A DNA stretch of 63,340 nt, filler included, from Chrysochromulina tobinii (lineage: Eukaryota): NCBI GenBank assembly GCA_001275005.1. It is 8 parts of 8 records of this genome, joined end to end, with 100 filler letters (N's around TTAATTAATTAA, not from the genome) between each part and the next. Parts side by side here need not be neighbours in the genome. Positions count along the whole stretch, not along the records: positions 61,948 to 63,340 come from JWZX01000199.1; 7 more parts are not named here. One strand, written 5' to 3'. Shown here in pieces: positions 3,339-63,340 of the stretch. The position numbers and the translations under genes are program-made. How positions within the stretch are numbered: position 1 is the first letter of the stretch; each line of letters begins with the position of its first letter. Under the pieces are notes generated by a model. It was given only the letters and a program-made list of their open reading frames with translations. It ran no database searches and was not told the origin of the DNA.

Positions 3339-6300
3339 CTAACGCCTCAAGGCGTCAGCTGCGTGCGCCTTGCCTTGGGCGTCGCCGTCGCGCACCAGCG
3401 CCGCGAGCGGCACGAGGGCGCCCGCCGCAACGATGCCCACCTTGATGGCAGCGTCGCCGGCCGCCAGATCACACAACGCGCCGGCTGCCTTCGCCTTGCC
3501 TAGAGCGTCGCCGTTGCGCACGAGCGCCGCGAGCGGCTCGATCGCGCCCGCCGCTACGATGGCCGCCTACTTCTTGGCAGCGTCGCCGCCCGCCAGATGC
3601 CGCAACGCGCCGGCGGCCTCCGCCTTGCCTGGAGCGTCGCCGTCGCGCACGAGCGCCGCGAGCGGCTCGAGGGCGCCCGCCGCTACGATGGCCGCCTTGA
3701 TGGCCAAACATACCGCAACGCGCCGGCGGCCTTCGCCTTGCCTTCAGCGTCGCCGTCGCGCACGAGCGCCGCGAGCGGCTCGATCGCGCCCGCCGCCGCA
3801 ATCGCCCATACGATGGCATCGTCGTCACCGCCCGCCAGATTCCCCAACGCGCCGGCGGCCTTCGCCTTGCCTTCAGCGTCGCCGTCGCGCATGAGCGCCG
3901 CGAGCGGCTCGATCGCGCCCGCCGCTACGATGGCCGCCTTGTTGGCATCGTCGTCGCCAGCCAGATTCCCCAACGCGGCGGCTGCCTTCGCCTTGCCTTC
4001 ACGGTCGCCATCGCGCACGAGCGCCACGAGCGGCTCGATCGCGCTCGCCGCCGCAATCGCCGCCTTGCGCTCAACTTCCGCCAGCCGCTTTTCCGCCAGC
4101 CGCCGCGCCTCCTCAGCCTCGCGCAGCCGACGAAACTCGCCCACTTCCCGCTCCACCTCGGCAGCAATTGCGGCCCGCACGCGCTCGAGTGCAGGTAGCA
4201 CGCAGTGCCCGGCGCCGGCGAGCGCCACGAATGTGACGCGCCGTGCCGGGCGCAGCGTGCGGTCGAGCCGGCAGACAACGTCCCCGGGCTTCCACACGTC
4301 AAGTTGCATGTCGCCATCGCCCGATCGCTTGCATGCAATCCCGTGCATTAGGCAGCATCCGTGGTGACGCGAGGCCGCAGGCGGCTGGAAGTGCGGCACG
4401 CGCCCATCGCCCACCGGCTGATCGATGTCCATGGCCGCGGACGGCGGTGGCGGCGCGGCCGTCTCGCAAGCACTGCACGTGCTCCGAGGCGGCGCGTTGA
4501 TCAGCGTGCACGCGGAGCAGGACCACGGCACGGTGTGCTTGAGCGGCGGCTTGGGCGCATTCTTGATCGTAATCGGCGGGACCCATTCCACCGGCGTGAT
4601 TGCGTGCCCGGGCGCCGGCATTGCGCTCCCCGCGAAGGCCGGCGCCGGAGCACCATCGAGCCAACGCACGGCGCTCTGTGCGACGCGCGGTCGAATGCCA
4701 ACGCCCGGGATGTTGATGTCGACGCTCCCATCCGCGTGCAGCGCCGCCACGGAGCAGCCTGCGAAGCCGCCAAAAAGTACATTCGTGCCGACGGCAAAAT
4801 TAGGAGCAGGCGGCGGCGGCGGCGGCGGCGGCACGCCAAAGCTAGCCCCGCCTTCCTGCGAGGTGGACGCTGAGGTCGATGGCGAGAAAGCTGTGGAGGC
4901 CACGCAGCTGAGCGTCAGTGGTGCGCCCGTTACGACGCCGTCGGCCCGCGGTACGTAACTGGGAGGACCGATCCGCGGGCCAAGCGTGAGCTGTGCACGG
5001 CGCTGTCCCGAGCGCCGCACGCGCAGCCCATCGAGCCGGATTCGCATCGAAATACGATGGCCCGTAAACTGCTGCGCCAGCCATGCCTTGACGACCCCGG
5101 GCATCGACGTGAACGTACCCTGCATATTTGCCGCAAGCGCCTCAGCAATGTCAAGCACGCTCATGCCCGCCCTGATGCCTCGGCCCGTGTACCAACCGCC
5201 TGAGCCAGTACCCTCGAGCCTGTAGTAGCCATCGGGATCTTCGAGGTCGAAAGGCTTGTCGCTCGCTTGAGCATAAATCGAGTGCGTGGCTGCCTGCCCG
5301 CCGGACGCATCGAGTGCGAACTGCAGCTGGGCCACATCGGCGCTCCGGAATGCGCTGAAGAGGGACCTTGTCCAGTCGGCCGAAATCGACTGCTTAGCCT
5401 TGAGCGGGCCTCCCGCTACGCCGAGCTCTGGCGGCGAGGTCCATGCGGAGCTCGCATCGGCGGCCACACCGACGAATGTGAGGCATGCATCGGCTGAGAC
5501 GCGCACGATGGCCCCGATGAGGCGTCCACGCGGCTCACCTGCGGGACTAGCCGCCTCGAGGGCCGGCACGTGGTCGGGGCAGAGCTCTGCGAGCGCAAGC
5601 ATGTCCACGTAATAGTCAAGTCCACTCTCTTCACAGAGGACAGCGATCGGCTTGGTGAGCAGGATGGCACCAGCCCCACTTCTCGTGACGTCGAGGGTGC
5701 CGAAAAAGTGAAGCCAATCTTCATCCGCGACGACACGCGGCGACGTTTCGGCGTGTTGGCTGGCCGCAGGCCTCACCGCTGCCTTGGCGCCCACGGGCGC
5801 CTTGCCCGCTGCCTTGGATGCGACTGTGGCACTTCCTCCTCCGCCTCCTTCTCCAACGGGCGCCTTGCCTCTGGCTTGGGGCGAGTCGAAGGATGCCGAA
5901 GCGCCTACCATCGCCGTCGTCCGTGCGGCAGTCATCGTCGCCGCTGTCACGCCGTCGGCAAGCTCGAGCGGGCAGCTTTGCACACCAACGCTACCGCTGC
6001 TCGGTGTGTAAAGTACAGTGCCTAAAGCAACGGCCGTCTCGCCCTCTGAAGCTGCCGCAGCCGCGCCCACAGAGGCCGATGCGAGATGGGCAGAGGGCAA
6101 AATGGCCACAGGGGTGCAGAGGCTGGCCAACGGCGGCGGGCATGCTTGAAGGGAGCCGAGGCTCATGCGCGGCAAAAGGCGCGCGCACGACGGGCAGTTG
6201 TGTCCTTCGTGCGGCCCGCATGTGAACAACTTCTTGGCACCGCCACCGACCTCTGATGAGGTCCCATCAGCACCCTCGTGTGCCGCGATTGGTCGGCCGC

Positions 6301-7578: not shown

Positions 7579-9690
7579 TCACGCCTCTCGCTCGGCCTGC
7601 TCAGCGTTGAGAACTTCCTCCCGGCGCTGCTTGGCTGCCTCAGAGCGGGCGTCGCGCTGCCGGTACAGCTTTGCGCGCCGCTCAAGGTCGAGCCGCACAC
7701 CATCGGGCGAGAGCTTACGCGCTCGCTCAACTGCCGCCCGAGCGTGGAGCGAGCCCAACAGTGATCAGTCAGTGGTCACCTGGGTGGCTGCTCAATAGCC
7801 TCAATGAGTGGCAATCCCGAATCCGTGGCCATCAGTGGCCGCACGAGTGGCTGATCAGTAGCCTCAATGAGCGGCCAACAATCATTGGCCATCAGTCGGC
7901 CATCAGCACACCTGCCGCCTGAGCGAGCTTGGCGCGTGATACCACCCTCTGCTGCTCGGTGAGGACGGGCGCTACGTACGGTGTGCTCGCAAAAGCGACA
8001 CGCCGCCCGTGCATGCCCTGGGGCCCAGTGGTGTGCAGCTTCGCCGGTAGCACGTACGAGTTCGGCCCAATGCGACACTCGTCCTCGTCGAGTTGCTCTA
8101 GTGGCCTGCCGAGGACCATCGCCGACGGACTCGATGCACACATCGCCCTCCGCGGGTTCCTATTGAAAGGGTGCACGTGAGTCACGCTATAGGTGCCCGG
8201 CCCGACCTCGGTGCCCGTGGACCCTGGCCAAAAGGCATCGGGCCGGCCAGACTGGGGGTTCGCGTCGCTGCCTGAGGGGAAGGGCCACTTGACACCATGG
8301 CGCAGCGGGGCGCAGGGCATGCTCGGAGCGCCCCCAGCATGGTTGTACGAGCCGATGGCCGGCGGAGCGTCGAGGGCCTTGAGGCCCTCTCGTAACTGCT
8401 GCGCCTCTAGGCCCGCCACGCTGGGCCAGCTGTAGTGCACTGGGTAGCGGTCGTCGAACCATCCTATCGCACGCATTCCGAGACTGTGTGAGCGCGCCGA
8501 AGCCATCGGGATCATGATGGGCATCTTTGGATAAGGATATGCGAGAGAGTCGAAGAGGCACAGCACGGGCGTCAGTGCAGGCGCAGATAGCTCAACGCAG
8601 GCGGCGAATGTGGCGGCGTGAGCATCAAGGTACAGTGTGTCATCAAGGTGCGCAGGCACGCGAGAGCTCATCAAGAGCTCATCAAGAGCTCAGACCTCTA
8701 AGGACGGTGCAGCGCCGAAGGGGTGTGAGATGGGAGAGCGAGAGCTTCGAGCGATGCACGCGGGTTCGAGCCGTCGCCTCCCTGTACATAGCAGCCCGGC
8801 CCTCGGCGGCTTGCCTGAGCCACGTCGCTCTTGCTTGGCTGCGCGCCGCCCGTGGGGCTCGAGCGTGAGCGCAGCCGCGCAGCCGAGGCGGTCGAGGGGC
8901 GGACCATCGGTCCGGCGTACTCTCCGGGGCTCGTCAGAATCGCATCGGGGAGCGGCGTGTCACTGCTCCAGCGTGGAAGCAGGGAGAAGCTATGCACCAT
9001 CTTTGTGTTGGCAAACGGACCGCCAAAGGGACGGGCGGGCTCGGCGGCGGGCGGCGGGGGCGCGTTGAGCAGCGCGCTCTGGATGCTCGGGTGGATGCTC
9101 CCTGCATTGAGCATCATTTCCTTCTCGAAGGCCTCATCGCGCGGTCTTCGCAACTTGTGCTGCAGGAATTGGTATGGGAAGGTCGAGCCCTGCATGTGCT
9201 GCAGATAGGCATGGCTGCGCCCACTCAGCTCATCGGCGAGTTCGGTGAAGTCGTCCGTCGAGGTGCCGAAGGCGTACTGCTCGGCGGCTTCGAGCTTGTG
9301 AGGGTGCCGACGCGTATGCTCGAGGTTGTGGGCCCCGCTCACCTCGGCGACCGAGAGCTTGTAGAAGGCCGACGCAGGCATGGGCGTTCGGAATTCCTCT
9401 TCTTGCACCCAGCTCTCAAAACCATGGCGGTCGAAGCGCGTGGCCTGCTCGGTGCTCAGTGTCTGCGGCGTCCTCAGCGCAGGGCCCGGCGACTGCGGCG
9501 GATGCTCCGGCGTCCATGCGACCAGGCGCTTTCTCGTGCTGAACGTCGCTTTCTGCTTGCCAAACCAAGCCATACCTTGGTGCTTGCGCAGATGCGGCGC
9601 TGAGGCCTGCCGCTGTGGCGTGTGAGCGCTGCGAAGGCTCGGCGTCGAGACAGAGGCTGCGAGGTGATTCTCGACTAGCTCGGGCTGCAT
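7579..9690 (-). CDS. SHIPPO/ODF3-like PGPGxY-repeat protein, 3 exons (introns 8464-8759 and 7731-7911); start uncertain
   Basis: SPGEY, GPGCY, GPGTY and GPNSY motifs; GT-AG splicing joins ORFs 8698-9960 and 7892-8674 to a final exon VERARKLSPDG...EREA*. Confidence 0.6.
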
Positions 9691-9951: not shown

Positions 9952-12949
9952 ATGATCCACACCGCCGCCACGTCGCTCGAGGCGCAGTGGATATCGCCAA
10001 AGCGTGGGAAGAAGCTCAGCAGCAGCCTCGAGCCAGGCGCGTCTCTCCGTGAAGCCTACGAGTTGCAGAGGCGCTTTGCCAGCGGCGGCGCTCGACTAAC
10101 GCCCTTTCCCGCTCCTAGGCCACGTCTAGATGCGACCGCATTTCTCGAAGCGCGGCGACGTACGTGGCTTGAGTCGAGGCAGGCCGCAGCTGCACTCTCT
10201 GCTTCGAATCCATCTCGACGACGAGGCGCGTCACCACGAGATGCGGAGGAGGAAGTGTGCCTCGCCGATCTGTGCGCAGACCCCCAATATGATGCGGCGA
10301 TCCTCGAGTCGATCTTTGGGCAAGAGGATGTGGATCGCAATCCCCATGCCGGCATGAGGCAATGGCGCAAGGCATCCCTCGCCATCATCGGATCCAGCCG
10401 CCTGAGACGTCTTGCGGATGCCGATCCGTTGGCCCTGCGGCGAGCGTCCTCGCGTCCAGCCTCGCATCAACATGTGAGCGGTGAGCTTAAGGAGGTGCGC
10501 GCTGATCCAAAGGAGACGCCCAAGCCGCCACCGGTCGAGCCACCGGCAGCGAAGCCGACCAAGAAAGGCTCGAGCACGCTCGGCAAGATCGACCTCGACG
10601 AAGGGCCCGACGCGCCGCCGATCCAGCAACAGATCGCGGCGGCGCTTCGCCGGAATGCGGGCAAGGTGCTCGACCTTTTCCGCGAGTGGGATGCCAACGG
10701 CGACGGCGAGGTGAGCAAGAAGGAGTTTCGGAAGGCGATGCCTGCCATCGGGCTCGATGTGTCGGTCCAGGAGGTCGATGCCCTCTTTGACAGCTGGGAC
10801 AGGGACGGAGGCGGCGCACTCAACTTGAAGGAGCTCAGCAAAGTTCTGAAGAGCCCCCCACCGCCGCTCGCCACAGCGCTGCCCAAGAGCTCAAGCTTGC
10901 CCTCTCTGAGTAAGCTGCCTGCGAGCTCGGGCCTGCCCCGGCTCGGCCAAACAACCAGCCGGGTGCGCATGAGGCTCGCCAGCGAGCTGCGCAACGAGCT
11001 GGACAAGGCGTTGCCGATGAAGAAGGCTGCCCCTCAGATGAACGCCACCGATCTGCGCGAGATGCTTGCAGGGTCGCTCGGCAGCCTCGTCGACGGGTTT
11101 CGTCAGTTCGACACCAACGGCGACGGCAAGGTTGACCTCCAAGAGTTTATCAAAGGCGTGCAGAGCATGGTCGCTTCTAGGGGAGCCAACTGCAGCCCGT
11201 GGTACATCGAGGCCATCTTTGACGATCTCGGTACGATCTCGGCGAGAGCGAAGCACTGTGATCTACCCCTCTATACCCCTCTATGCCGTTCTCCCTGCCT
11301 GCCTGCCTCAGTCCCTCCCTTCCTCCGTAACCGTCTCTCCCTCCCTACTCCCTCCCTCCCTCACTCCCTCCCTCCCTCCCACCTCACGCTCGATTGGAAT
11401 GGCCGCACACAGACTACGACGGCAACGGTTTCCTCTCTTACGACGAGCTACGCTCCACCAAGGTCGCCCATGACGTTATGTAAGCGGGCCACCCTGATGG
11501 TTCAGCCGCGCATGCCTCCGCCGCCAAAGGGCCTCGAGTCGCACGGACGCCAGGTGCTCTAGCACTCTCCTCAAGCGCATATTCGATCACCTCTGATGAC
11601 CTCTGTAGACCTCTGGTGACCTCTGATGACCTCTGTAGACCTCTGATGACCTCTGATGACCTCTGATGACCTCTGATGACCTCTGATGACCTCTGATGAC
11701 CTCTGATGACCTCAGGATGACCTCTGATGACCTCTGATGACCTCTGATGACCACTGATGACCTCTGATGACCACTGATGACCTCTGATGACCTCTGATGA
11801 CCTTATGTTGACCTCAGGATGACCTCTGGCATTGCCTTGCATGCAGGTGCTCGAGCTCCTGAATCAGTTCGAGGAGATTGAGAATGCGAAGGTGCTTGGC
11901 AACGTCGCTGCGGCCGCTGCGGCCGACTCAGCCATCGGGCGGCGCAATCGTGCAGAGGCATTCGATATGATCATACGCCAGTTCTTTGCGAGCGAGTCGA
12001 CACAGGCGGTCCTGCAGCTTCAAGAGTGGGTCCAACAGATACGGGAGCAACGCACGCGAGCCAAGGACGCAAGGATGCGGGAAGCGGACTCGGTGCTCAT
12101 CGCGTCGCTCGACACGGACGGGTACGAGTGTGCGGCTCAGCCGACTGCGCCACCCCCTTCCCTCCCACACCATGGTGACGAACTTACCCCTGCGCTCACT
12201 ATGCGGTGTTCTGAGGGCGCGTGCTGTTTGGTGATTCATGTAGGGACGGCACGATTAGCATCAACGAGTTCGTAGAGCTTTGGAAGACGACCGGCCTGTC
12301 GAAGCCAGTGCTGCGCCAGCACTTTCGCCGAAGAGACCTCGGTAACGTGGGACAGGCGACAGCTCAGCCAGCCCCCAGGCTTGGATGCAAGTGCTCACCA
12401 CGGCGCCCTCTCTTCCTAACTCTCTTCCCCACAGGTAACGTGGGACAGCTCAGCCAGCCCCAGATGCTCGAGGTACTGCGCGAGCTCAGGGCGGAGGTGA
12501 AGCAGCAGAAGGCACGCGAGAAGGCACAGGCGGAACTTGCCCTCGCGGGCGGCCTTACGCTTCCAGCAAGGCGTGCGGACTTGCCTGATGCCGAGCTGCC
12601 TGCGGACTTGCCCTCCGCCAGTCCGCAGAAGAGTCCGCAGAAGGCTGTTGCCGCAACAAGCACGCCGCCGCCTGCTCGGAGCTTCGGAGCTTGCATGCAA
12701 GTGCTCACCCCGGCGCCCTCTCTTCCTAACTCTGCTCTGAGCTTCGGAGCTCACTTGACATTGGAGGACCACGGGCACTCGGCTCGAGTGGGCGCTCCAT
12801 TGGGCGCTCCGTTGGAGCAGCCCCCGCGCGAGGGCGAGCTCATGCTGAAGAAGTACCAGGAAGAGAAGGTGGCTCAAAGGAGGCCGCAAAGGCCTTCGCG
12901 AGGTACTTTCTCGATCAATGAAGCTCTACGAGATCGCCAGGCGCCGTGA
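9952..12949 (+). CDS. Multi-EF-hand calcium-binding protein (introns 11231-11412, 11463-11846, 12122-12243, 12342-12434)
   Basis: EF loops DANGDGEVSKKEF, DRDGGGALNLKEL and DTNGDGKVDLQEF, plus spliced DYDGNGFLSYDEL and DTDGDGTISINEF. Confidence 0.85.
11586..11828. repeat. Intronic 10-bp minisatellite (ACCTCTGATG)n, ~24 units
   Basis: Read directly. Confidence 0.95.
12342..12434 (+). mobile_element. Introner-like intron with shared core tgcaagtgctcaccacggcgccct...ccccacag
   Basis: Core recurs at 12692-12731 and 59119-59165; the intron 5' end duplicates the start of the downstream exon. Confidence 0.7.
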
Positions 12950-31605: not shown

Positions 31606-31898
31606 AGTACCATGTAGGCCGTCGCAGCATAGCGTGAGAGTCACACGGAGACAGTCCCAGTCAGACCTCTCAGGACTGAGATTGAAGGGGACACTGACTG
31701 TGATGTGTGAAAGTCTGACAGTCACAGTCAGGTCGAGCGCGCCGCCGCCGCCAGCGTTGAGCGTATCGACGACAATTCGCCACACATCAGCTATCCTAAA
31801 CAATTTACAATTACTCAAATCTCAAGAGGTGGAGATTTGTGTCGCGGCGGTGGGGGGAGGACACGGGGATGTGTACAGGGTATGTGTCCCGTGTGTGT

Positions 31899-31930
31899 GT
31901 CCCGGCTCCCCCCGGTGTCTTTTTACCGGT
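31899..31930 (+). repeat. 32-bp dispersed motif gtcccggctccccccggtgtctttttaccggt (copy 1 of 3)
   Basis: Identical at 49446-49477 (-) and 52741-52772 (+). Confidence 0.9.
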
Positions 31931-34785: not shown

Positions 34786-34936
34786 CGAAAGAGTACGCCA
34801 CCGCTGCTTCTGCTGTCAACACAACGCGCAAGACCTCCGCTGCTGCTGCTGTTCAACACAACGCGCACGACCTCCGGACCCCCAAGCACGAGGGCCTCTA
34901 TCGCTATGGACGGAGGTGTGGCCAACACAACCTGCT
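34786..34936 (-). repeat. Detached copy (~1.5 units) of the 94-bp monomer found upstream of ORF 37177
   Basis: Reverse complement of ggccacacctccgtccatagcgatagaggccctcgtgcttgggggtccggagg...gttgaacagcagcag. Confidence 0.85.
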
Positions 34937-36938: not shown

Positions 36939-37120
36939 CGGCCACACCTCCGTCCATAGCGATAGAGGCCCTCGTGCTTGGGGGTCCGGAGGTTGTGCGC
37001 GTTGTGTTGAACAGCAGCAGCAGGCGTTGTGTCGGCCACACCTCCGTCCATAGCGATAGAGGCCCTCGTGCTTGGGGGTCCGGAGGTTGTGCGCGTTGTG
37101 TTGAACAGCAGCAGCAGGCG
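36939..37120 (+). repeat. 94-bp tandem monomers (two or more, truncated by gap) ~57 bp upstream of ORF 37177
   Basis: Units start at 36939 and 37033. Confidence 0.9.
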
Positions 37121-37176
37121 TCTTCGAAAGGCAGGAGCCGAGTAGACCCCACGGCCTGACGTAGCGTACTCACATC

Positions 37177-49363: not shown

Positions 49364-49445
49364 CGGGGTCGTCGGATTTTGGGAAGATGTCGAGAGGGAC
49401 GCGCTCGGCTTCAACAAAGATGGGTCTTTTCAGTTGTCTTTTCGT

Positions 49446-49477
49446 ACCGGTAAAAAGACACCGGGGGGAGCCGGGAC
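49446..49477 (-). repeat. 32-bp dispersed motif, copy 2
   Basis: Reverse complement identical to 31899-31930. Confidence 0.9.
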
Positions 49478-49779
49478 ACACACGAGACACACGGAACACG
49501 CGGACGCACAAAGGCACACAGACCACACAGACGAACCTCAGAACCATCGAAACCCACCAACAACACACACCCCGCACGTCAGCGCGACGACCGAAGCCGT
49601 ACCGGTACATGTAAAAATTCAGACGAACGTTAGCCCCCTTCGAGCGCCAGGTTATCTGGACCTGAGCTCAACTCCCCAACCGGGAGTGTGCCCGGTCTGT
49701 GAACGGAAATATGGGCGTCTCCTGGCTCGCACCCGCGGTGGCTCGTGAGCGACGACTTCTTTCAGGACGTACATTCTGA

Positions 49780-52740
49780 ATGACCTGCTGCGCCTCCTCA
49801 CCGTTTGCTTCGTCGCACCTATTGTCTACCGCACCCATTCCGAAGACGGTGGACCTCGCTGATCCAAACGCGCTCGAGCGCGTGGCCCGAGCGCGTGCAT
49901 ACCGCGGCGAGCTCATCCTCTTCTCCTTTGACTTTTGCGGCATTTCCGAGGCGCTCTCGCTCATCATCTCCCTGCGGCGTGCGAGCTTTGAGCACTTTCT
50001 GCCGTTGACCGATGGCATTGAAACATGTGATGCGATGCGAACTGCCGCCAGGCTGCGAGACCTAGACGATCGCACGATGCCGTGCTATTTCAGCTCGTGG
50101 CCTCGAGACCACGCTGGCTGGAAGATGTGGGGTCATGGCCCGGCGTGCGTGAGTGCGGCGCGGCCGTCTCATTCCTGCGTCCTCGAGCAGCTGTGGACGT
50201 CTCGGTACGCCGTCGCAGGCCGGCTGCTTGCGCTTGGCCAGATCAACTTGCTACACATGGACACCGACTCGGCCATCCTCGCGGACCCATACGCAGTGCT
50301 CAAGACGGCGCCACTAGCGGCGCACAATTTGATCTTCGTACCCGAATTGCCGATCAACGGCGGTATGTGGTATGCGCAGAACACCACCGACGGCGGACCC
50401 TCTCAGTGGATCATCGCCGAAGTCGCGCGACGCACGCTACAAGTCATCTCGCTCACGCCGCAGCGACGGATGCTGCCCCCTTTCGACCAGGCAATGCTGG
50501 GCGACGTGCTGTACACGGCCGCGGATCGTGGCACGGTGCATTGGGGCGCTGCATGCGAGCACATGGTCGTTCGCAAGTCCGCACTTTGCACGGCCAACAC
50601 GAGTCGCAATCCGCGAATGATGCGATGGGACGTGCGCCATCGCGGTGAGCCTCCAATTCTCGCTGCCCTCGTGCGCCCCCGCCCAGCATGCACGTGCTCA
50701 CCACGACGCTCCGCCCGCTTCCCCACAGTTGCGCCTCCAACGGCCGCGGCCAGGGCGGCGCTCAAGGCTCCGGCGCCGAAGTCCGAGTACGGTCGCGCGA
50801 GGCTCCCGACCCGGAACAAAGGGATAGTTCCCACCGCTCTCTTCCGTTCCGTCGAGCTGCGCGTGCCCGGGACCACGCATGTCGAGCGAGCAGCGACCAC
50901 GTTGCCGTGGCTCTTCCCCAACGGCTGGAAAGCGCAGCAGCTCGGCCTCTTTGCGCGGCGGCCGGCGGCGGCGGCGGTTGTGCACCTGCTTGGCGTGCGC
51001 TGCCGCTGGTGCGAGAGCAGCGAAGATGTCGACCATGGTTCCAAGTGGGAGTGGCAGCACCTCGCCGGCTTTTGGCCGGCGCGGGCGTATACGCTCGCAC
51101 CGCTACTCGCCTCCACCTCGGGCGCCTCGGCCACGGCCACGGCTGCGGCTGCTGCTGCGGCTGCGGGCGGCACGGCGCCCAGGCCGCCCGGCACAGCGCC
51201 AACGGACGGTGGTGGAGTGCCCGGTACGGCGCCATCGGCTGGGCAGGCTGCGCTCTCGCAATCGATTGAGTCGTCGCCACCCGTAGAGTTTGGCACGATT
51301 GGCTCTCCATTGAGTGAGCGCGTGGAGCGTCACTGCCGCAAGCGCGGCCGCGCGCGCCTGCTGTACGCCGACCGGCGTGTGCTGAGCGTCAGTCGCAAGG
51401 CCTTGGCCTACCTGCATGCCGAGGGTGCTGACGACGACGGCGCCGCCGCACGCACCCTCATTCGTCAGTTGATCGTCCTGGCGAGCGTGAGCGGGCGCAT
51501 GGCGGTGCTCCCGTCCTTCAACTGCTCCGCCCCGTGGATTCAGAAGGTGCCTCGTGAGGACGGCAGCCTTGTTCTCGCCGACTTGCGCGTGGTCATCGTC
51601 GACGCGGCCGAGGGCCGCCCCATACACGAGCAGCGGTGCGCGCCATGCAACGTACAGTTTGCATGCCGCCAGCACGTCCTCTCGGAGGCTCAGTGGCGTG
51701 CGGCAAAGGAAGCGACGGTTACAGCGACGGTGCCCCAGCCCCCCTCCGATGCCGCTCACGACGGCGCCTCGGCAGGTGTTCTCGACTCGCCGACGAGGCT
51801 GCCTCTGCCCTTGGTCGCGCCCGAACCGGGCGCCGTACCGGGCGCTCATCGAGTGGTCCATCTGCTGCAGCTCTGGGCCCTGTTGGCCACGCACCTCGGC
51901 ACCCAGCGCGAGTTGCAGCTGGAGGAGCTCGGCGACGTCCGCGGGGACGCTTGCTCTCTCGATGGGGAGCTTCTGAAGCAGTCGGCTTCTCTGGCGGCGA
52001 CGGTCGTGCGACTACACTGCGGGGTGGCGGAGGCGGCCCTAGAGCTGCGCAGCCTATGCCCTCGCACGGACGCGGAGACGAGATACGCCCTCGGCCGTTG
52101 GGGGCAGGGAATCGAGGAGGCGAGGTGCCCCCAGTACACCACCAACGAGGGGCAGCTCCTAGAACGTCGGGATGTCCGTGCGGCTCCGCACCCGATGACC
52201 CATTCGGCGGCGGCGTGGCGACGCTCACTGTTGGCGGCGCGGCTGGGAGTCCGCTGTGGGGATATGCTTTGCTCCGACCGCTCGTGCGACGTGCTCGCCG
52301 TCGAAGAGTGCTCGCATAATCTCCGACGCGAGCTCGCGGGGATCGACGCCAACAGCAGCGCGGCGATGCAGCGCGTGCGATCGCACCTTCGGCACGCGTC
52401 GCCTGCGGTGGTGCAGGAGATGGTGCGGGAGCGTTGCACCGTGTGGATCCATCGTCTCCCCAAAGATTCGAGACCCCGGTGCGACGCACTCACAGGGCAG
52501 TGCCTTGCGCCGCCGAGAGCTTTCCCGGGAAGGGCAACCTGGCCCTCGGCCATTTGCCTCGAGGAGCCACCGGCGCGCATGTGCTTTGCGGGTCGGCCGG
52601 TAGACCTCAAAGCCGAGAACGCAGAGCGCTTTTGTTCAAAGTGCTACAGCCGTGCCGACGTCGCGCACGGCGCACGATCGTCCAAATCGAGGCACGATAC
52701 GTCATTAGGGCTACCGGTACGCATTCGTGTGTCCGTGTGA
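49780..52740 (+). CDS. Nucleotide-diphospho-sugar transferase (GT77-like) with long extension
   Basis: LERVARARAYRGELILF, LWTSRYAVAGRLLALGQINLLHMDTD (DxD), INGGMWY, FDQAMLGD, VLASVSGRMAVLPSFNC. Confidence 0.8.
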   Translation: MTCCASSPFASSHLLSTAPIPKTVDLADPNALERVARARAYRGELILFSFDFCGISEALSLIISLRRASFEHFLPLTDGIETCDAMRTAARLRDLDDRTMPCYFSSWPRDHAGWKMWGHGPACVSAARPSHSCVLEQLWTSRYAVAGRLLALGQINLLHMDTDSAILADPYAVLKTAPLAAHNLIFVPELPINGGMWYAQNTTDGGPSQWIIAEVARRTLQVISLTPQRRMLPPFDQAMLGDVLYTAADRGTVHWGAACEHMVVRKSALCTANTSRNPRMMRWDVRHRGEPPILAALVRPRPACTCSPRRSARFPTVAPPTAAARAALKAPAPKSEYGRARLPTRNKGIVPTALFRSVELRVPGTTHVERAATTLPWLFPNGWKAQQLGLFARRPAAAAVVHLLGVRCRWCESSEDVDHGSKWEWQHLAGFWPARAYTLAPLLASTSGASATATAAAAAAAAGGTAPRPPGTAPTDGGGVPGTAPSAGQAALSQSIESSPPVEFGTIGSPLSERVERHCRKRGRARLLYADRRVLSVSRKALAYLHAEGADDDGAAARTLIRQLIVLASVSGRMAVLPSFNCSAPWIQKVPREDGSLVLADLRVVIVDAAEGRPIHEQRCAPCNVQFACRQHVLSEAQWRAAKEATVTATVPQPPSDAAHDGASAGVLDSPTRLPLPLVAPEPGAVPGAHRVVHLLQLWALLATHLGTQRELQLEELGDVRGDACSLDGELLKQSASLAATVVRLHCGVAEAALELRSLCPRTDAETRYALGRWGQGIEEARCPQYTTNEGQLLERRDVRAAPHPMTHSAAAWRRSLLAARLGVRCGDMLCSDRSCDVLAVEECSHNLRRELAGIDANSSAAMQRVRSHLRHASPAVVQEMVRERCTVWIHRLPKDSRPRCDALTGQCLAPPRAFPGRATWPSAICLEEPPARMCFAGRPVDLKAENAERFCSKCYSRADVAHGARSSKSRHDTSLGLPVRIRVSV

Positions 52741-52772
52741 GTCCCGGCTCCCCCCGGTGTCTTTTTACCGGT
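52741..52772 (+). repeat. 32-bp dispersed motif, copy 3
   Basis: Identical to 31899-31930. Confidence 0.9.
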
Positions 52773-52814
52773 ACGCAATCTCCGTACAATTGAGGAAATG
52801 CAAAGTGTCTGCTG

Positions 52815-55333: not shown

Positions 55334-58300
55334 TCAATGGTCGCCGTCGAGGCCGCTATAGTCCATTTTGGCCACCTGCTGGCGCAGCATCGAGCGCGCT
55401 GAGCCCTTGCCGCCCGCCCGCGAGTCGGCCATCGCCCGTGCCGCATCCGACGAGGCCTTCGAGTACGTAGAGCGCGGCGTGGCAGCGGGGCCCTCGTCGA
55501 CGCTCTTCTTGATGTTCATGTTCAGCTTGAGCTTTGGCATCACGGGGGCGCCATCGGGGCCCGTCACCACTGGCGCCGCCGACGGCGCGGGCTCCGAGCT
55601 GAGCGCTGTCATGGGCACCGGCCCGTCCGAGATGTCGACGGCGCCGTCCATGTCGTTTGGCAAAGGCGTCGAGGGTCGCGTGCCCCGCGGTGTGCCCAGC
55701 TCGGCAGCACGATCGACGCGCGCCTGCAGCACGGCATCGCGCTTCTCGGACGCTGCCTGCAGCGCCCCCTCCATTTGCTCCTCGGTGCGCGCTTTGCCCT
55801 TCTGCTTGAGGCGCTCGGCGAGGTCCTTTGGAGGCTCCCTCGGCGTCTCGTTGACCGCCACCTCGATCACCTGCGTCGCCGACAGATTGCGTGCGACCGT
55901 TAGCGTCTTCGGGTCGTCCGGTCCGAGCGCCGCGGCCATGATGTCGTACGCGCGCTTGAAGAGCGCGATTGCCTCGTCGCGCCGCCCTTGCACGCGGTAG
56001 ACGATGCCCAGGTTGGACAGATCCATCGCCACCTCGGGATGATCATCGCCAAGCGCGGCCTGGTCAATGGCGAGCGCGCGGAGGTAGAGCGGCACCGCCT
56101 CCGAATGCTGGTTCTGATCGCAGAAGGCGTTGCCCAGATTGACGAGATCCTTGGCAACCTCCGGGTGATCTGGCCCGAGGGTCTTCTCATAGATCGCGAG
56201 CGCCGTCATGTAGAGAGGCACTGCGTGCGGCGCCTTGCCCTGCGTCCGGTAGAGCAGCGCCAGGCGCCCTAGGTCAGAGGCGACCTCGTGCAGCGTGGCC
56301 TCCATGTCCTCGCGCTCGCGCTCGAGCCGCTGAGCCTCGGCTTCGCTGTCTTTCTCGGCCTGGGACACCTCCTTTGCCTGCCATCGCGTCGGGTCGTCGG
56401 TGAGAGGTCTTGTCGCTCGTCATCCATCGCAATCAATCCTCATTCAGGGGAAATCCATGCTCATCAAGGGGCAATGCATGCTCATCCATCGCAATCAATC
56501 CTCATTCAGGGGGAATCCATGCTCATCAAGGGGCAATGCATGCTCATCCATCGCAATCAATCCTCATTCAGGGGGAATCCATGCTCATCAAGGGGCAATC
56601 CATGCTCCTCAGGGGCCATGTCTCACCTTGTCTTCGAGCGACTGGACGTCGGCCCACGCGCGCTCGACGGCGCCCTGATACGCCTCGAGAGTCGCCGCCT
56701 GCTCCTCCTGCGATTGAGTCGAACGGTCTGTCCCTTCAGGCGAGTCCGCTTTCATGGCGTCGCGCGCTGCCGCCTCGAGCGCCCTGCCATCGAGCGCGCC
56801 GCTCGCAGTGCTCAGTCGCGCCGCCCCAAAGCTATCCTTGATGAAGTCGTCCACCATCACAGCCTCGTCGGCGGGCATGCGCTTGCTGCTGCTGCTGCTG
56901 CTGCTGCTGTCTGCCTGCTTGGCGGCCTTGGGCAACGTCGGCGCCGCCTCCGGGAGCGCCACTCCCTTGGAGGTGGCCAGCGCGCGCAGTCGCTCGAGCT
57001 CGATTGACGAAGCGGCCTGCTGCTTGCGCATCGCCTTCATCTTGCTCTCGTGCTCTTTGCGCTTTCGGGCGAGCTTGCCAGAGAGGGCGGCCTGCGCCTC
57101 CGCCTGCGCCTGCATGAGCTCGTCGAGCTCGAGCTTCGCTGCCTCCACCTTGGCCTGTACTGACCCTAGTGCCACGCGCAGAGACTGCTGAGACTCGTAC
57201 GTCGGACGGAGCCGCGCCCACGCGCCAAGCTCGGCGCGCACGCGCCCGAGCTGCGACTCGTAATACTTCCAAAACAGCTCATCCTCGAGAGCGGTGAAGT
57301 CGACTGACGCGTTCACCTTGGCCTGCACCTTGACCGACATGGCCTGCTGGCCGAATTGCAGCGAGTTCAGTGTCTCAAACGAGTCGGAGGCCGTCGGAGC
57401 GACGCACACGATCAGCACCGTGTTGGCGCGCCCACCAAAGGCGCCCGACAGCAGCCGCGTGAGCTTCGTCTCGCGAAAGGGCGGTCGGCCGCCCTTGGGG
57501 CCCGCGGCGAGAGCCTGCACGCACCGGCCGAGCGTCGTGAGCGAATTGTTGATCGCGATCGCCTCGTCGAACGCCTGCCCCGTCACTTCGGACTTTTTGA
57601 CGCGCTCGGAGCCGGCGAGGTCGACGAGGTGCAGCTTGCCGCGCAGGATGCGTGAGCCCGCGCGGGTGGTGACGTCGAGCAAGAGCACCGAATGCGAGCG
57701 CGACGATGCATCGTTCATCGCTGTCGCGCTCGTCACGCGGTTGCGGTTGGCTGCCTCGATCACGCCCACCGCCTGCTGCACCGACGTGAGCGGCGTCGAC
57801 TGCGCGCCGGTGAGGACCACGCCCTCCTTGGGATCTTCTCGTAGGTCGACCTGATGAGGGAGGCAATCACATGCCGTCAGAGGCCTTCCGACGCCATCAG
57901 GGGAGGCAATCACATCCCCTCGTCGTTGGGATCCTCTCGCGGACCCACCTCGTTCTTAGGCTCGAGCAGGTCGTACAGGCCTTCGAGATAGATCTGGACG
58001 TACGAGAGCCGCACTTCGCGCCCCTCAGCCGCGTCATCCGTCAGGATCTGCGAGAGCGCTCGCCACACGACACCCTCCTTGCCCGCCGCCACGTTGCCGA
58101 GCGTGTGCGTCTTGCCAGCGCCCGTCTGGCCGTAGCACATGACGCAGCCGTTGATGCCCTCGAGCACGCCGGCGATCACCTCCGTCTCCGTGCACGCTGC
58201 GCGGTACACATCCTCCTGCTGCGCGTCGGGAGGCAGCACACCGTCGAAGACGAACTGGCGCGGCGACGCCGAGCGCTCGCCCTTGCGCGATCCGGCGTCG

Positions 58301-58813
58301 TTCCCGTCCTCACCGGCGCCCTCCTTGTTCTCGAGGAGCCAGAGCTTCGGGCTCTGCACGTGGATCGCCGAGCTGCCCGCGCTGCTGCTGTCCTCCTTCG
58401 CCTCATTCTTGCGCACCGTCGGCCGCACGCGCACGTAGACGCGCACGCGTGTCGCGCCGCCACCCGCGGCGGCGCTCGAGCCCGACGTCGATTGCCGCTT
58501 GAGCTTCGTGGGCGTACCCTCCTTGCTGCCGGGCTTGCTGCCACCCTCCTTGGCAGGCGGCGTGTCAGCGCCCGCCTCACCTTTGTTTTGCTGCCGCTCC
58601 GCGAGCGCCTCGTCATCCACCATGCGGTTGGCGGCACCGGCCGACGAGGGCGGCAGCGGGGGACGTGCGCCGGGCGGCAGCGGCGGCGCCTTGGCTCCGG
58701 GGCGCCGCGCGGTGGGACCGGCAGCGGGTGCTTTCGCCGGCTTCTGGGCGTCGGGCGTGGACGGCCGTGGCGAGCGAGGCGACGCCGGCGCCGCCGGCGC
58801 CGCCGCTGCAGGG
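55334..58813 (-). CDS. Kinesin motor + coiled coil + kinesin-light-chain-like TPR repeats; introns 57851-57948 and 56378-56626; 5'-partial
   Basis: VRVYVRVRP, GQTGAGKT, NDASSRSH, DLAGSER, PFRETKLTRLL; TPRs LGPDHPEVAKDLVNLG and LGDDHPEVAMDLSNLG; GT-AG splicing keeps the frame (KNE|VDLRED, EDK|AKEVSQ). Confidence 0.9.
56420..56610. repeat. Intronic 62-bp tandem repeat, ~3 copies
   Basis: tcatccatcgcaatcaatcctcattcagggggaatccatgctcatcaaggggcaatgcatgc units at 56420, 56482 and 56544. Confidence 0.92.
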
Positions 58814-61637: not shown

Positions 61638-61947
61638 GTACGCCGCCCCTCCCCCCTTGCCGCGTGGATGAGAGGCCCTGAGCGGTCATCAGAGGTCATC
61701 ATATGTAATCAATGGCAATCAGGGGTCATCATTCGCAATCAGAGGGCACTCAGCGGCACTCAGAGGGCACTCAGCGGCACTCAGAGCCACTCGGTGGCCA
61801 CTCGGTGGGCCCCTCAGAGGCCATCAGCGGGCCCCTCAGAGGCCATCNNNNNNNNNNNNNNNNNNNNNNNNNNNNNNNNNNNNNNNNNNNNTTAATTAAT
61901 TAANNNNNNNNNNNNNNNNNNNNNNNNNNNNNNNNNNNNNNNNNNNN

Positions 61948-63340
61948 CGGCCGTACAGCATGCGAGACGCGCTGCAGCGCCTCGGCTGTCGGGTCGACAC
62001 TTACGAGCTTCTCGACGGACCCGAGCAGGACCTGTCGAGGCCCACGGTGCAGTCGGTCGTCCTCGCGGGCGTCACGGCGGGCGTGTGGGACGGCGTCTTC
62101 ATGGCACCGCCGTGCGCGTCGTTCTGCCCCGCGCTGGTCCCCCGGCTCCGGTCGCTTACCGAGGTCGAAGGGATTCGGCCCGTGCCCGAGCGCTGGAGCG
62201 CCTACCTAGCCAAGCACAACGCGCTCGTCGCGTTCGTGGCGCAGGTGGCGACGGCTGCCGATGCGAAGGGGGTCTTCTGGGCCATCGAAAACCCGGCTTC
62301 CAGACGAGGCGGGTGGGCGTGGTGGCCCGAGCAGGCCGATGCGCCCAGCCTGTGGGACATGCCTGCGATCGTCGAGCTCCGTCGAGCGACGAAGGCGGCG
62401 AGGAGGACCTTCGCGCAGTGCCAGTTCGGCTCCGAGTACCAGAAGTACACGTCGGTCATGGTCTCTGCCCGAGGGGAAGCTGAGCTCGTACGTGCCTTCG
62501 GAACGGCCCGATGCTCTTGCATCGACCAGGGGCGCGTGCACGCTAAGGTCGCCGCGGGCTCAGACGAGTTTGGCGCGTCGCTGTCGGCTCCGTCGGCGGC
62601 GTACCCGCCGAAGCTCAACTCGGCGCTCGCGGAGATGCTCGATAGGGCGACAGGCGGCCAGGCGGAGACCCGGTGCACGCCCTTCGAAACGGGGCCGACG
62701 CAGGCTCTTGGGCTTCACGTCGGTTCGGACGACCCGCACGTGCTGCAGCTCGACGATGACAAGGTCGCGCGCTCGCGGAAGCGCCCGACGTTCTCGCTGC
62801 GCAGCCACACGGCGGCAACGCCGGCGGAGCTCGCGAGCAGGCCGGTGGCGCGGATGAACGCGCCGGTGGCGACGGTGGAGACGTGCGCGTCGCCCGTGCA
62901 GGCGGCTGGTCATCCGACCGTGCGCAGCCTCAACGACCTGCTCTACCCGAGCTGGGCGAAGCGGGTAACGCACTGGCGACGACAGATGCGTCGGTGCCTC
63001 ACCCTCGCCGAGTACGGCGACTGGAGAGCGGCGCGGCGGATGCGGCCGGCTGACCTCCTCGTCCCGAGCGAGGCGATGCTGCCCGCGGTACGCGCGTGGG
63101 AGTGGGATCTCCGCCCGTGGGCGCTCGGGCTGCCGGCGGTGCCGACAGTCCCCTCGTCCTTCGAGGGCGTTCGTCCGGCGACGTCGGTTGACGTCGAACG
63201 ACTAACGCGAGAGACGGAGCCAGGGGGCGATCTCGAGCACTACCCCGACCAGGCCATCCTCCAGCAGCTCAGGGACGGCGTGTCGGACGACGTGCCCCCC
63301 CTGACGGGCTCCTTTCTGTGCGGCCCGCACACAGGGGCGC
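61948..63340 (+). mobile_element. Open frame (both ends partial) with C5 cytosine-methyltransferase domain followed by a DIRS-pol-like region: probable DNMT-carrying retrotransposon
   Basis: Own translation from 61948 has no stop for 464 codons: WDGVFMAPPCASF (catalytic PC at 62110-62115), WAIENP (ENP at 62287-62295), QCQFG..QKYT, SAAYPPKLNSALA; later WEWDLRP and YPDQAILQQLRDGV. Confidence 0.75.

Follow-up and report, generated by a model that had tools for sequence, protein, structure and literature searches.

A compact phage-type C5-cytosine-methyltransferase-like domain in the pol frame of a tyrosine-recombinase retrotransposon from a haptophyte

Introduction

The published captures of cytosine methylases by retrotransposons considered here are Dnmt3-type enzymes, an orphan clade on SymbioLINE elements and the DNMTs of EpiLTRs (PMC5890265; PMC12344493; bioRxiv 10.64898/2026.05.21.726589). 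The closest of these systems is SymbioDIRS-Dnmt3 (de Mendoza et al. 2018, PMC5890265), a tyrosine-recombinase (YR) retrotransposon with A-coding-B-A-B repeats, in which a methylase under purifying selection is encoded in the pol ORF together with the reverse transcriptase (RT), and the recombinase in a separate ORF. Its methylase was found via PF00145 and clusters with eukaryotic Dnmt3, not with viral enzymes; the peer-review file of the same paper states that viral enzymes did not cluster with the Symbiodinium ones. In yeast, SymbioDIRS-Dnmt3 carries out de novo CG methylation, and the authors propose that it methylates cDNA (PMC5890265). The survey of DNMT-bearing transposons in that paper starts from PF00145; its table gives only four PF00145 genes for “C. 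tobin”, and its main text makes no mention of haptophytes.

Other described elements share single aspects with the one reported here. The SymbioLINE-Dnmt orphan clade (PMC5890265) also places a non-Dnmt3 methylase on a retroelement, but in ORF1 of a LINE and in a form detected by PF00145; it is set beside our family by description only. For EpiLTRs and DAM-LTRs (bioRxiv 10.64898/2026.05.21.726589), prokaryote-like methylases are described as moving between retrotransposons of the DIRS and LTR types, but the enzymes are adenine (Dam) methylases or DNMTs sister to DNMT4 with a chromodomain, and a compact phage-type C5 family does not figure in the available text. Ngaro and PAT-like YR elements (PMC3783388, PMC6681497, PMC3266345) have the order gag - pol (RT/RNase H) - YR and split direct repeats, Ngaro being defined by A-pol-B-A-B repeats and the lack of a Dam domain (PMC3783388); the available descriptions of these elements include no cytosine methylase. 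Outside retrotransposons, the phage and viral methylases of the phrog_757 family (Tetrasphaera phage TJE1, Bacteroides phage BKO1-3, Inoviridae sp.) span about 200-250 aa, with a PC..ENP..FG..K-x-T motif series and a short variable region. These are free-standing phage genes, some of them PF00145-positive, whose activity is an annotation.

Here, we analyze a stretch of 63,340 nucleotides from Chrysochromulina tobinii (assembly GCA_001275005.1; eight joined parts, hereafter the window), at whose end lies a fragment of a YR retrotransposon. Its relatives share with SymbioDIRS-Dnmt3 the repeat layout, the position of the methylase beside the RT, the separate recombinase ORF and the purifying selection on the methylase, but the methylase itself differs: PF00145 does not see it, its match is to a phage family, K-x-T takes the place of R-x-R, it comprises about 240 aa and its host is a haptophyte.

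Results

An open frame with ordered methylase motifs

The earlier note on this DNA had pointed to a frame open from the last gap to the window end, with C5-methylase-like motifs in order. Both observations hold: window 61948-63339(+) contains 464 codons without a stop, and MAPPC, IENP, QCQFG..KYT, AAYPPKL and DQAILQQLRDGV follow one another at 62101-63282. This ordered pattern, which was written from the same family, occurs a single time in the six frames of the window. The features are:

61848..61947, no strand: gap of 100 positions, N plus a 12-base stop linker; one of seven in the window
61948..63339, + strand: pol ORF fragment of a tyrosine-recombinase retrotransposon, 464 aa, corresponding to residues 298-761 of a 1724-aa relative; protein P0306 is 93% identical over 464 aa
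61948..62661, + strand: predicted compact C5-cytosine-methyltransferase-like domain, phrog_757-like (PHROG match, AlphaFold2 model, structure searches); motif I in the gap
62101..62115, + strand: motif IV MAPPC with the predicted catalytic Cys (PPC); Cys in 137/138 representatives, one gap
62146..62154, + strand: LRS, with a family-specific near-invariant Arg after the catalytic loop; Arg in 135/138 representatives and 99% of 149 domains
62284..62295, + strand: motif VI variant IENP; Glu in 138/138 representatives, Pro in 134/138
62416..62451, + strand: putative motif VIII variant QCQFG..Y-Q-K-Y-T, matched to the canonical R-x-R by motif order; K-x-T in 128/138 representatives, Arg at either place in 0/138
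62512..62550, + strand: C-x-C...H segment in a short variable region; first Cys in 129/138 representatives
62596..62616, + strand: motif X-like AAYPP (AAYPPKL) and C-terminal helix (domain alignment, model, conservation)
62722..63340, + strand: conserved Trp-rich N-terminal RT module, kept in methylase-less relatives too; leaves the window before the RT core
63247..63282, + strand: DQAILQQLRDGV motif, last of the ordered motifs in the frame

Motif I, which the earlier note placed just upstream in the gap, is indeed found there in relatives, where VVLFAGRER precedes the window's first residue (L001, 97.7%; P0002, 91%). Canonical C5 methylases have the SAM-binding motif I F-x-G-x-G; in relatives of the present family, 138 cluster representatives among them, the motif instead reads L-F-[AS]-G followed by R, P or D and not by x-G (the window's own copy lies in the gap). 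Motif VI is E-N/H-P in place of ENV, and the Q-x-R-x-R of motif VIII is absent, K-x-T standing where motif order would put it. The Cys of the QC motif is nearly as conserved as the predicted catalytic one (136 of 138); together with the C-x-C...H segment, it makes up a possible metal site. In Dnmt3a, the arginines of motif VIII are described as essential for catalysis, and they are regarded as common to C5 enzymes (PMC4802922).

To the left of the gap, the sequence is host-like, with ankyrin, kinesin and TPR fragments, and the rest of the window has no match to the element loci described below. In locus L003, the match to the window fragment starts at position 3905; if the window copy were whole, the gap would therefore hide about 3.9 kb of 5' element, namely, repeat A, ORF1 and the pol leader.

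A predicted C5-methylase fold related to phage enzymes

From an alignment of 23 domains, we derived an AlphaFold2 model of the L001 domain, which is 98% identical to that of the window (pLDDT 88). Against the PDB, Foldseek returned C5-cytosine methylases only, among the matches listed, with a TM score to DNMTs of about 0.43, which is moderate. A VIA alignment to M.HhaI 10-323 covered 206 residues (Z 11.4, rmsd 4.1), and in an unbiased structure search, the top 7 of 48,161 chains were C5 methylases with 191-214 residues aligned. SDR Rossmann folds came less than one Z unit behind (Z 9.6), with a shorter alignment of 161 residues, and 8yf3, a carboxymethyl-transfer enzyme of C5-methylase-like fold, ranked 9th (Z 9.6) in the wide structure search. 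Scores to DNMT3, DNMT1 and M.HhaI were tied. The domain combines a predicted C5-methylase fold with putative motifs I to X in canonical order. The best viral structure models were a 210-aa protein (TM 0.61/0.70) and a putative cytosine methylase of Tetraselmis virus 1.

The profile check suggested in the earlier note came out negative: PF00145 has no match to the window at E≤10, nor to any of the 25 long homologs described below or of two further sets of 17 and 31; against 31 short representatives, it gave a weak, sub-cut-off match in two. Likewise, a phmmer search of the PDB with the window frame found no methylase, and NCBIfam returned nothing significant for the domain. Profile searches of the PDB gave nothing significant either, DNMT2 being the sole match (E 0.15), with no DNMT3 chain at E≤10. 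The identification as a C5 methylase was nevertheless borne out by the fold and by PHROG, in which the DNA methyltransferase family phrog_757 matches window 61948-62661 at E 5.8e-11, an independent match that makes a chance origin of the motifs unlikely. The same profile matches 18 of the 23 aligned domains at E≤1, and HHalign relates the element domain to the compact methylases of phrog_757 with a probability of 96.5. The element domain differs from these in its additional QC motif, Cys/His residues and invariant Arg, and in being fused to pol. A distant member, L032, retrieved seven weak phage records (E 0.008-0.5), six of them annotated as DNA methyltransferases; three phage proteins from this search have PC, ENP and K-x-T in common, and two of the three match PF00145. 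In the ESM Atlas, 30 unnamed clusters lie at about 0.95 and the nearest named one, a PF00145 cluster, at 0.88, which we take as a lead only.

Among the phage members, the 4.6-kb Inoviridae sp. sequence L039 (MW202486.1) encodes a compact methylase of the phrog_757-like family adjoining a Rep gene. Related compact methylase genes were also seen in Bacillus phages and in Haloferax tailed virus 1.

Architecture of the element in relatives

RT, RNase H and a tyrosine recombinase had been expected beyond position 63340, and relatives contain all three. We found 25 longer protein homologs, the best of which (1724 aa) is 91% identical across the whole fragment. A downstream YIDD/YVDD motif is present in 25/25; the methylase motifs, with motif I directly before the window's first residue, occur in 20, and the domain is absent from the remaining 5. 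At the DNA level, a metagenome scan yielded 37 loci, with identities to the window of 97.7% (L001), about 89% (L002-L006) and 69% (L008). The L003 unit of 8544 bp has three ORFs: ORF1 (930 aa), called gag-like solely for its position; pol; and, overlapping pol, a recombinase ORF in which HSLRIG and GRWAS motifs occur. Recombinase ORFs of this type (HSLRIG..GRW.S) were found in L002, L003, L008, L009 and L012-L015; their PF00589 match is weak in close relatives (L003, E 0.013; L015, 0.0012) and clear in two distant ones (L022, 3.5e-8; the other, 2e-7). Downstream of the methylase, the L003 pol has a predicted fold (pLDDT 89) for which Foldseek returned caulimoviral, foamy-viral, MLV and Ty3 RTs (best E 4e-13), and the RNase H motif set of the relatives' pol retains its acidic residues.

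L003, L008, L013 and L015 combine a methylase in the pol ORF with a separate YR ORF, and L008 displays A-coding-B-A-B repeats (A, 1-99 = 7945-8043; B, 7660-7783 = 8240-8363). The architecture of the relatives is A - ORF1 - pol (methylase, RT, RNase H) - recombinase - B - A - B. A search for DIRS1-type inverted terminal repeats in the relatives revealed short chance inverted pairs only and direct repeats instead, and Pfam gave no match to a Dam domain in them. Of the proposed DIRS-type assignment, the YR retrotransposon with its DIRS order stands, while the repeats are of the split direct, Ngaro/PAT-like kind rather than the inverted ones of DIRS1. By its repeats and the absence of a Dam domain, the layout fits the Ngaro/PAT type. 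On homology, the window frame is a fragment of pol from a split-direct-repeat, DIRS-order YR retrotransposon of about 8.5 kb. Two loci stop at the identical base before differing flanks, and one starts at the A repeat behind unrelated DNA; such shared ends with different flanks argue for independent insertions. In L001, the nearest relative, pol is split and the recombinase deleted, so the window copy may itself be dead.

The junction between the first two ORFs was compared in ten close loci (L001-L003, L007-L009, L012-L015), with one example given here:

L003 2936-3020: ORF1/pol junction with conserved pol ATG context

In 10/10 loci, the pol ATG stands in a GA-GAG-ATG-GG context 66-77 bases past the ORF1 stop, which suggests a dedicated start for pol, by re-initiation, a splice acceptor or an internal promoter. 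In several loci, only one in-frame stop separates ORF1 from pol, and readthrough of this codon was therefore weighed; it was rejected, given the differing frame in L007-L009, the second stop in L015 and the ATG context conserved throughout. Circular assemblies of L002, L003, L009 and L013 were not accepted as circular DNA, since collapsed A/B repeats look identical.

Several relatives depart from this layout. Methylase, RT/RNase H and recombinase share a single 2,200-aa ORF in L022 (2-6682) and L024 (3887-10513), the latter with a ubiquitin-like ORF at 11365-12192. In L028, of the L028-L033 group, the methylase ends an ORF that overlaps a recombinase-like one, and a 980-aa Pro-rich ORF comes after it. 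DUF4326 adjoins the methylase in the pol proteins P0145, P0210, P0235 and P0186.

Purifying selection and cytosine content

The methylase domain is under purifying selection, with dN/dS of 0.07-0.15 in nine close pairs and of 0.11 and 0.28 in two distant ones. These values are similar to those of the RT (0.04-0.14 in five of the close-pair lineages). The 300-aa leader after the pol ATG evolves near-neutrally in the closest pairs: dN/dS is 0.90 and 0.98 in the two closest that cover it and 0.45 in a third. CpG is not depleted in the fragment (observed/expected 1.25 versus 1.15 in the rest of the window), and scans of dinucleotides, 3- and 4-mers and C-to-T contexts gave no shared depleted cytosine word, no C-to-T excess at CG and no target motif.

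Breadth of the family and exchange between element classes

Searching 1.84 billion representatives with the family profile returned 15,986 clusters at E≤0.001, 7,595 at 1e-10 and 1,041 at 1e-30, counts that pool clusters regardless of taxon. The best 120 of 138 matches in a long-protein search were mostly pol proteins of 1,000-1,200 aa. Named among the matches listed are Cladocopium goreaui, Symbiodinium sp. CCMP2592 and EukProt “Skav” models, which we take to be S. kawagutii; several have PF00078 on record and none PF00145. Their pol is collinear with the haptophyte pol over 889 columns (HHalign 99.9).

The domain is not confined to YR elements. Among 31 long representatives chosen from 150 listed, 10 have Copia-type domains and 1 Gypsy-type domains, with PF00145 in 0/31. 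P0046 and P0051 carry the methylase between integrase and RT of Copia elements, and P0196, the Gypsy-type polyprotein, at an N-terminal position. In a quick tree of 53 domains, two Copia-borne methylases intermix with two YR-borne ones (SH-aLRT 99), and a quick RT tree of 40 rows from the family's own members places two methylase-less elements inside a methylase-bearing clade (99) and three just outside. Both trees have long phage branches, which limits what they say on the direction of transfer. Taken together, the intermixing and the methylase-less elements within the methylase-bearing clade suggest that the methylase behaves as an accessory, exchangeable cassette, cleanly absent in some relatives and also present on Copia and Gypsy elements. 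Its absence from 5/25 long homologs indicates that mobility probably does not depend on it.

Host and occurrence

Where members of the nearest protein clusters are named, they belong to Chrysochromulina tobinii and C. parva, at 89-91% identity to the window, which points to a Chrysochromulina-like haptophyte as host and agrees with the lineage assumed in the earlier note. Most occurrences of near-identical DNA are in freshwater metagenomes: of 13 runs that contain at least half of the words, 9 are labelled freshwater or lake. DNA runs hold several variants each, compatible with multiple copies and equally with multiple strains. RNA-library contigs of one sample (X18 and X19 being the same) span 28 and 30 of the 30 L003 bins, where DNA carry-over is possible, and two further RNA runs reach 5 and 2 of the 30; we do not take this coverage as evidence of transcription. 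Scans of viral contigs gave no relative of the element. In prokaryotic genomes, two short MAG contigs match (L041 and L042; 3.2 and 4.5 kb, 96% and 69% identity), which probably are binning contamination. In L004 and L016, eukaryote-like genes and repeats flank the element copies.

Discussion

DNMT-bearing YR elements are already known from Symbiodinium; what appears to be new is a compact, phage-type methylase invisible to PF00145. The likeness to the Symbiodinium and Klebsormidium elements drawn in the earlier note accordingly survives for the methylase-bearing retrotransposon and fails for the enzyme, which is of the compact phage type and not of the Dnmt3 type. Retrotransposons would have taken up a cytosine methylase independently once more, apparently from something phage-like and not from a host Dnmt3. 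Fusions of DNMT and RT were reportedly noted by Iyer in 2011. Our literature search, mostly by title and start of abstract, found no report of a compact C5 methylase of phage type on retrotransposons, whether of haptophytes or of other hosts, and Iyer 2011 and the main supplement of PMC5890265 may bear on this point; as far as the literature was searched, the capture is the first of its kind in haptophytes. A practical consequence is that surveys based on PF00145 miss a compact family numbering thousands of clusters (eukaryotic and other, in an undivided count).

What did the element gain from this domain? Established for it are the C5-methylase fold, as modeled, the conserved Cys and Glu, and purifying selection. 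We favor, with a probability of about 0.6, that the domain places methyl groups on cytosines of the cDNA that the element has just made. On the model of SymbioDIRS-Dnmt3 (PMC5890265), the element RNA would be reverse-transcribed, the pol-fused methylase would sit on the nascent cDNA and mark its cytosines using SAM, and the recombinase would integrate the marked cDNA. With such a mark, the new copy might pass for host DNA or be shielded from cytosine-directed attack; the earlier note had likewise proposed self-methylation as a possible escape from host surveillance. In this lineage, DNMT5 is reported to methylate CG in gene bodies (PMC12344493, PMC9998398). Against this self-marking stand the altered motifs I and VIII, the moderate fold similarity, the lack of cytosine depletion and the dispensability of the domain. 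Searching the literature by the name phrog_757 only, we found no assay of an enzyme of this type. The enzyme is small, easily expressed and non-canonical in its catalytic motif, and its activity is amenable to testing in yeast; moreover, the sister elements with and without methylase offer a natural way to learn the domain's benefit to the element.

The same altered motifs invite a second, rather doubtful reading, in which the domain is catalytically re-purposed: it would bind or covalently trap cytosine-containing cDNA or RNA, or write a non-methyl C5 adduct, and so aid cDNA handling or integration instead of methylation mimicry. K-x-T in place of R-x-R, the unusual motif I, the family-specific set of invariant Arg and Cys residues and the missing deamination footprint are all in line with it. 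Precedents can be named as well: the C5-methylase fold also hosts carboxymethyl transfer (8yf3; PMC12783734), SymbioLINE-Dnmt is described as inactive on yeast DNA (PMC5890265), some phage members reside in 4.6-kb ssDNA-type genomes beside a Rep gene, and DIRS-1 is described as making single-stranded cDNA (PMC7192593). However, catalytic Cys and Glu are invariant, as in a working C5 enzyme, and two of three phage members tested are recognized by PF00145. In addition, the CmoX carboxymethyltransferases have a carboxylate-binding Arg (R350) with SPPC (PMC12783734), which we tentatively place in the motif-X region, and neither the 23-domain alignment nor the 149 domains show a conserved Arg there by sequence.

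Less probable still is an active methylase working in trans on host chromatin, competing elements or giant-virus DNA, for which the element would be tolerated or favored. In its favor, the closest named relatives are methylases of phages and an algal virus, and the domain is dispensable for the element and common to YR and Copia elements; its fusion within the pol polyprotein of the YR and Copia elements examined, however, favors action in cis on the cDNA. It seems very improbable, and is largely refuted, that the domain is a passenger in decay, that the frame is a GC-rich ORF arisen by chance, or that a gene of bacterial or phage origin was mis-binned. The lack of any Pfam or PDB sequence match and the presence of the domain in two prokaryotic MAG contigs could be read that way, but dN/dS is 0.07-0.15, L004 and L016 have eukaryote-like flanks, named relatives come from Chrysochromulina, the MAG matches are short contigs and probably contamination, and viral contigs gave no match.

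It is tempting to speculate, quite tentatively, that no methylase is carried more commonly by algal retrotransposons than this Pfam-invisible, phage-derived family of cytosine-modifying enzymes with its rebuilt active site (K-x-T, additional invariant Arg, possible metal site), that it rides on haptophyte and dinoflagellate elements of the YR, Copia and Gypsy types, and that its cDNA mark is not ordinary CG methylation and could be non-CG, single-strand-directed or non-methyl. If so, methylases would lie hidden in published control sets of “DIRS without DNMT”, and the elements themselves would write part of the CH methylation that targets transposons in Symbiodiniaceae and lacks an explanation so far.

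Other features of the window

Elsewhere in the window, pieces of a kinesin motor gene followed by a TPR region at 55334-58813(-) represent an ordinary host gene. Tandem repeats with 10-base and 62-base units lie at 11555-11846, 56420-56610 and 61668-61847, apparently in introns or beside gaps. Dispersed inverted repeat pairs of 45-92 bases, 91-99% complementary, occur at 31884-31930, 49440-49492 and 52734-52778 and at 34840-34931 and 36939-37121, and look like the ends of small DNA transposons or MITEs.
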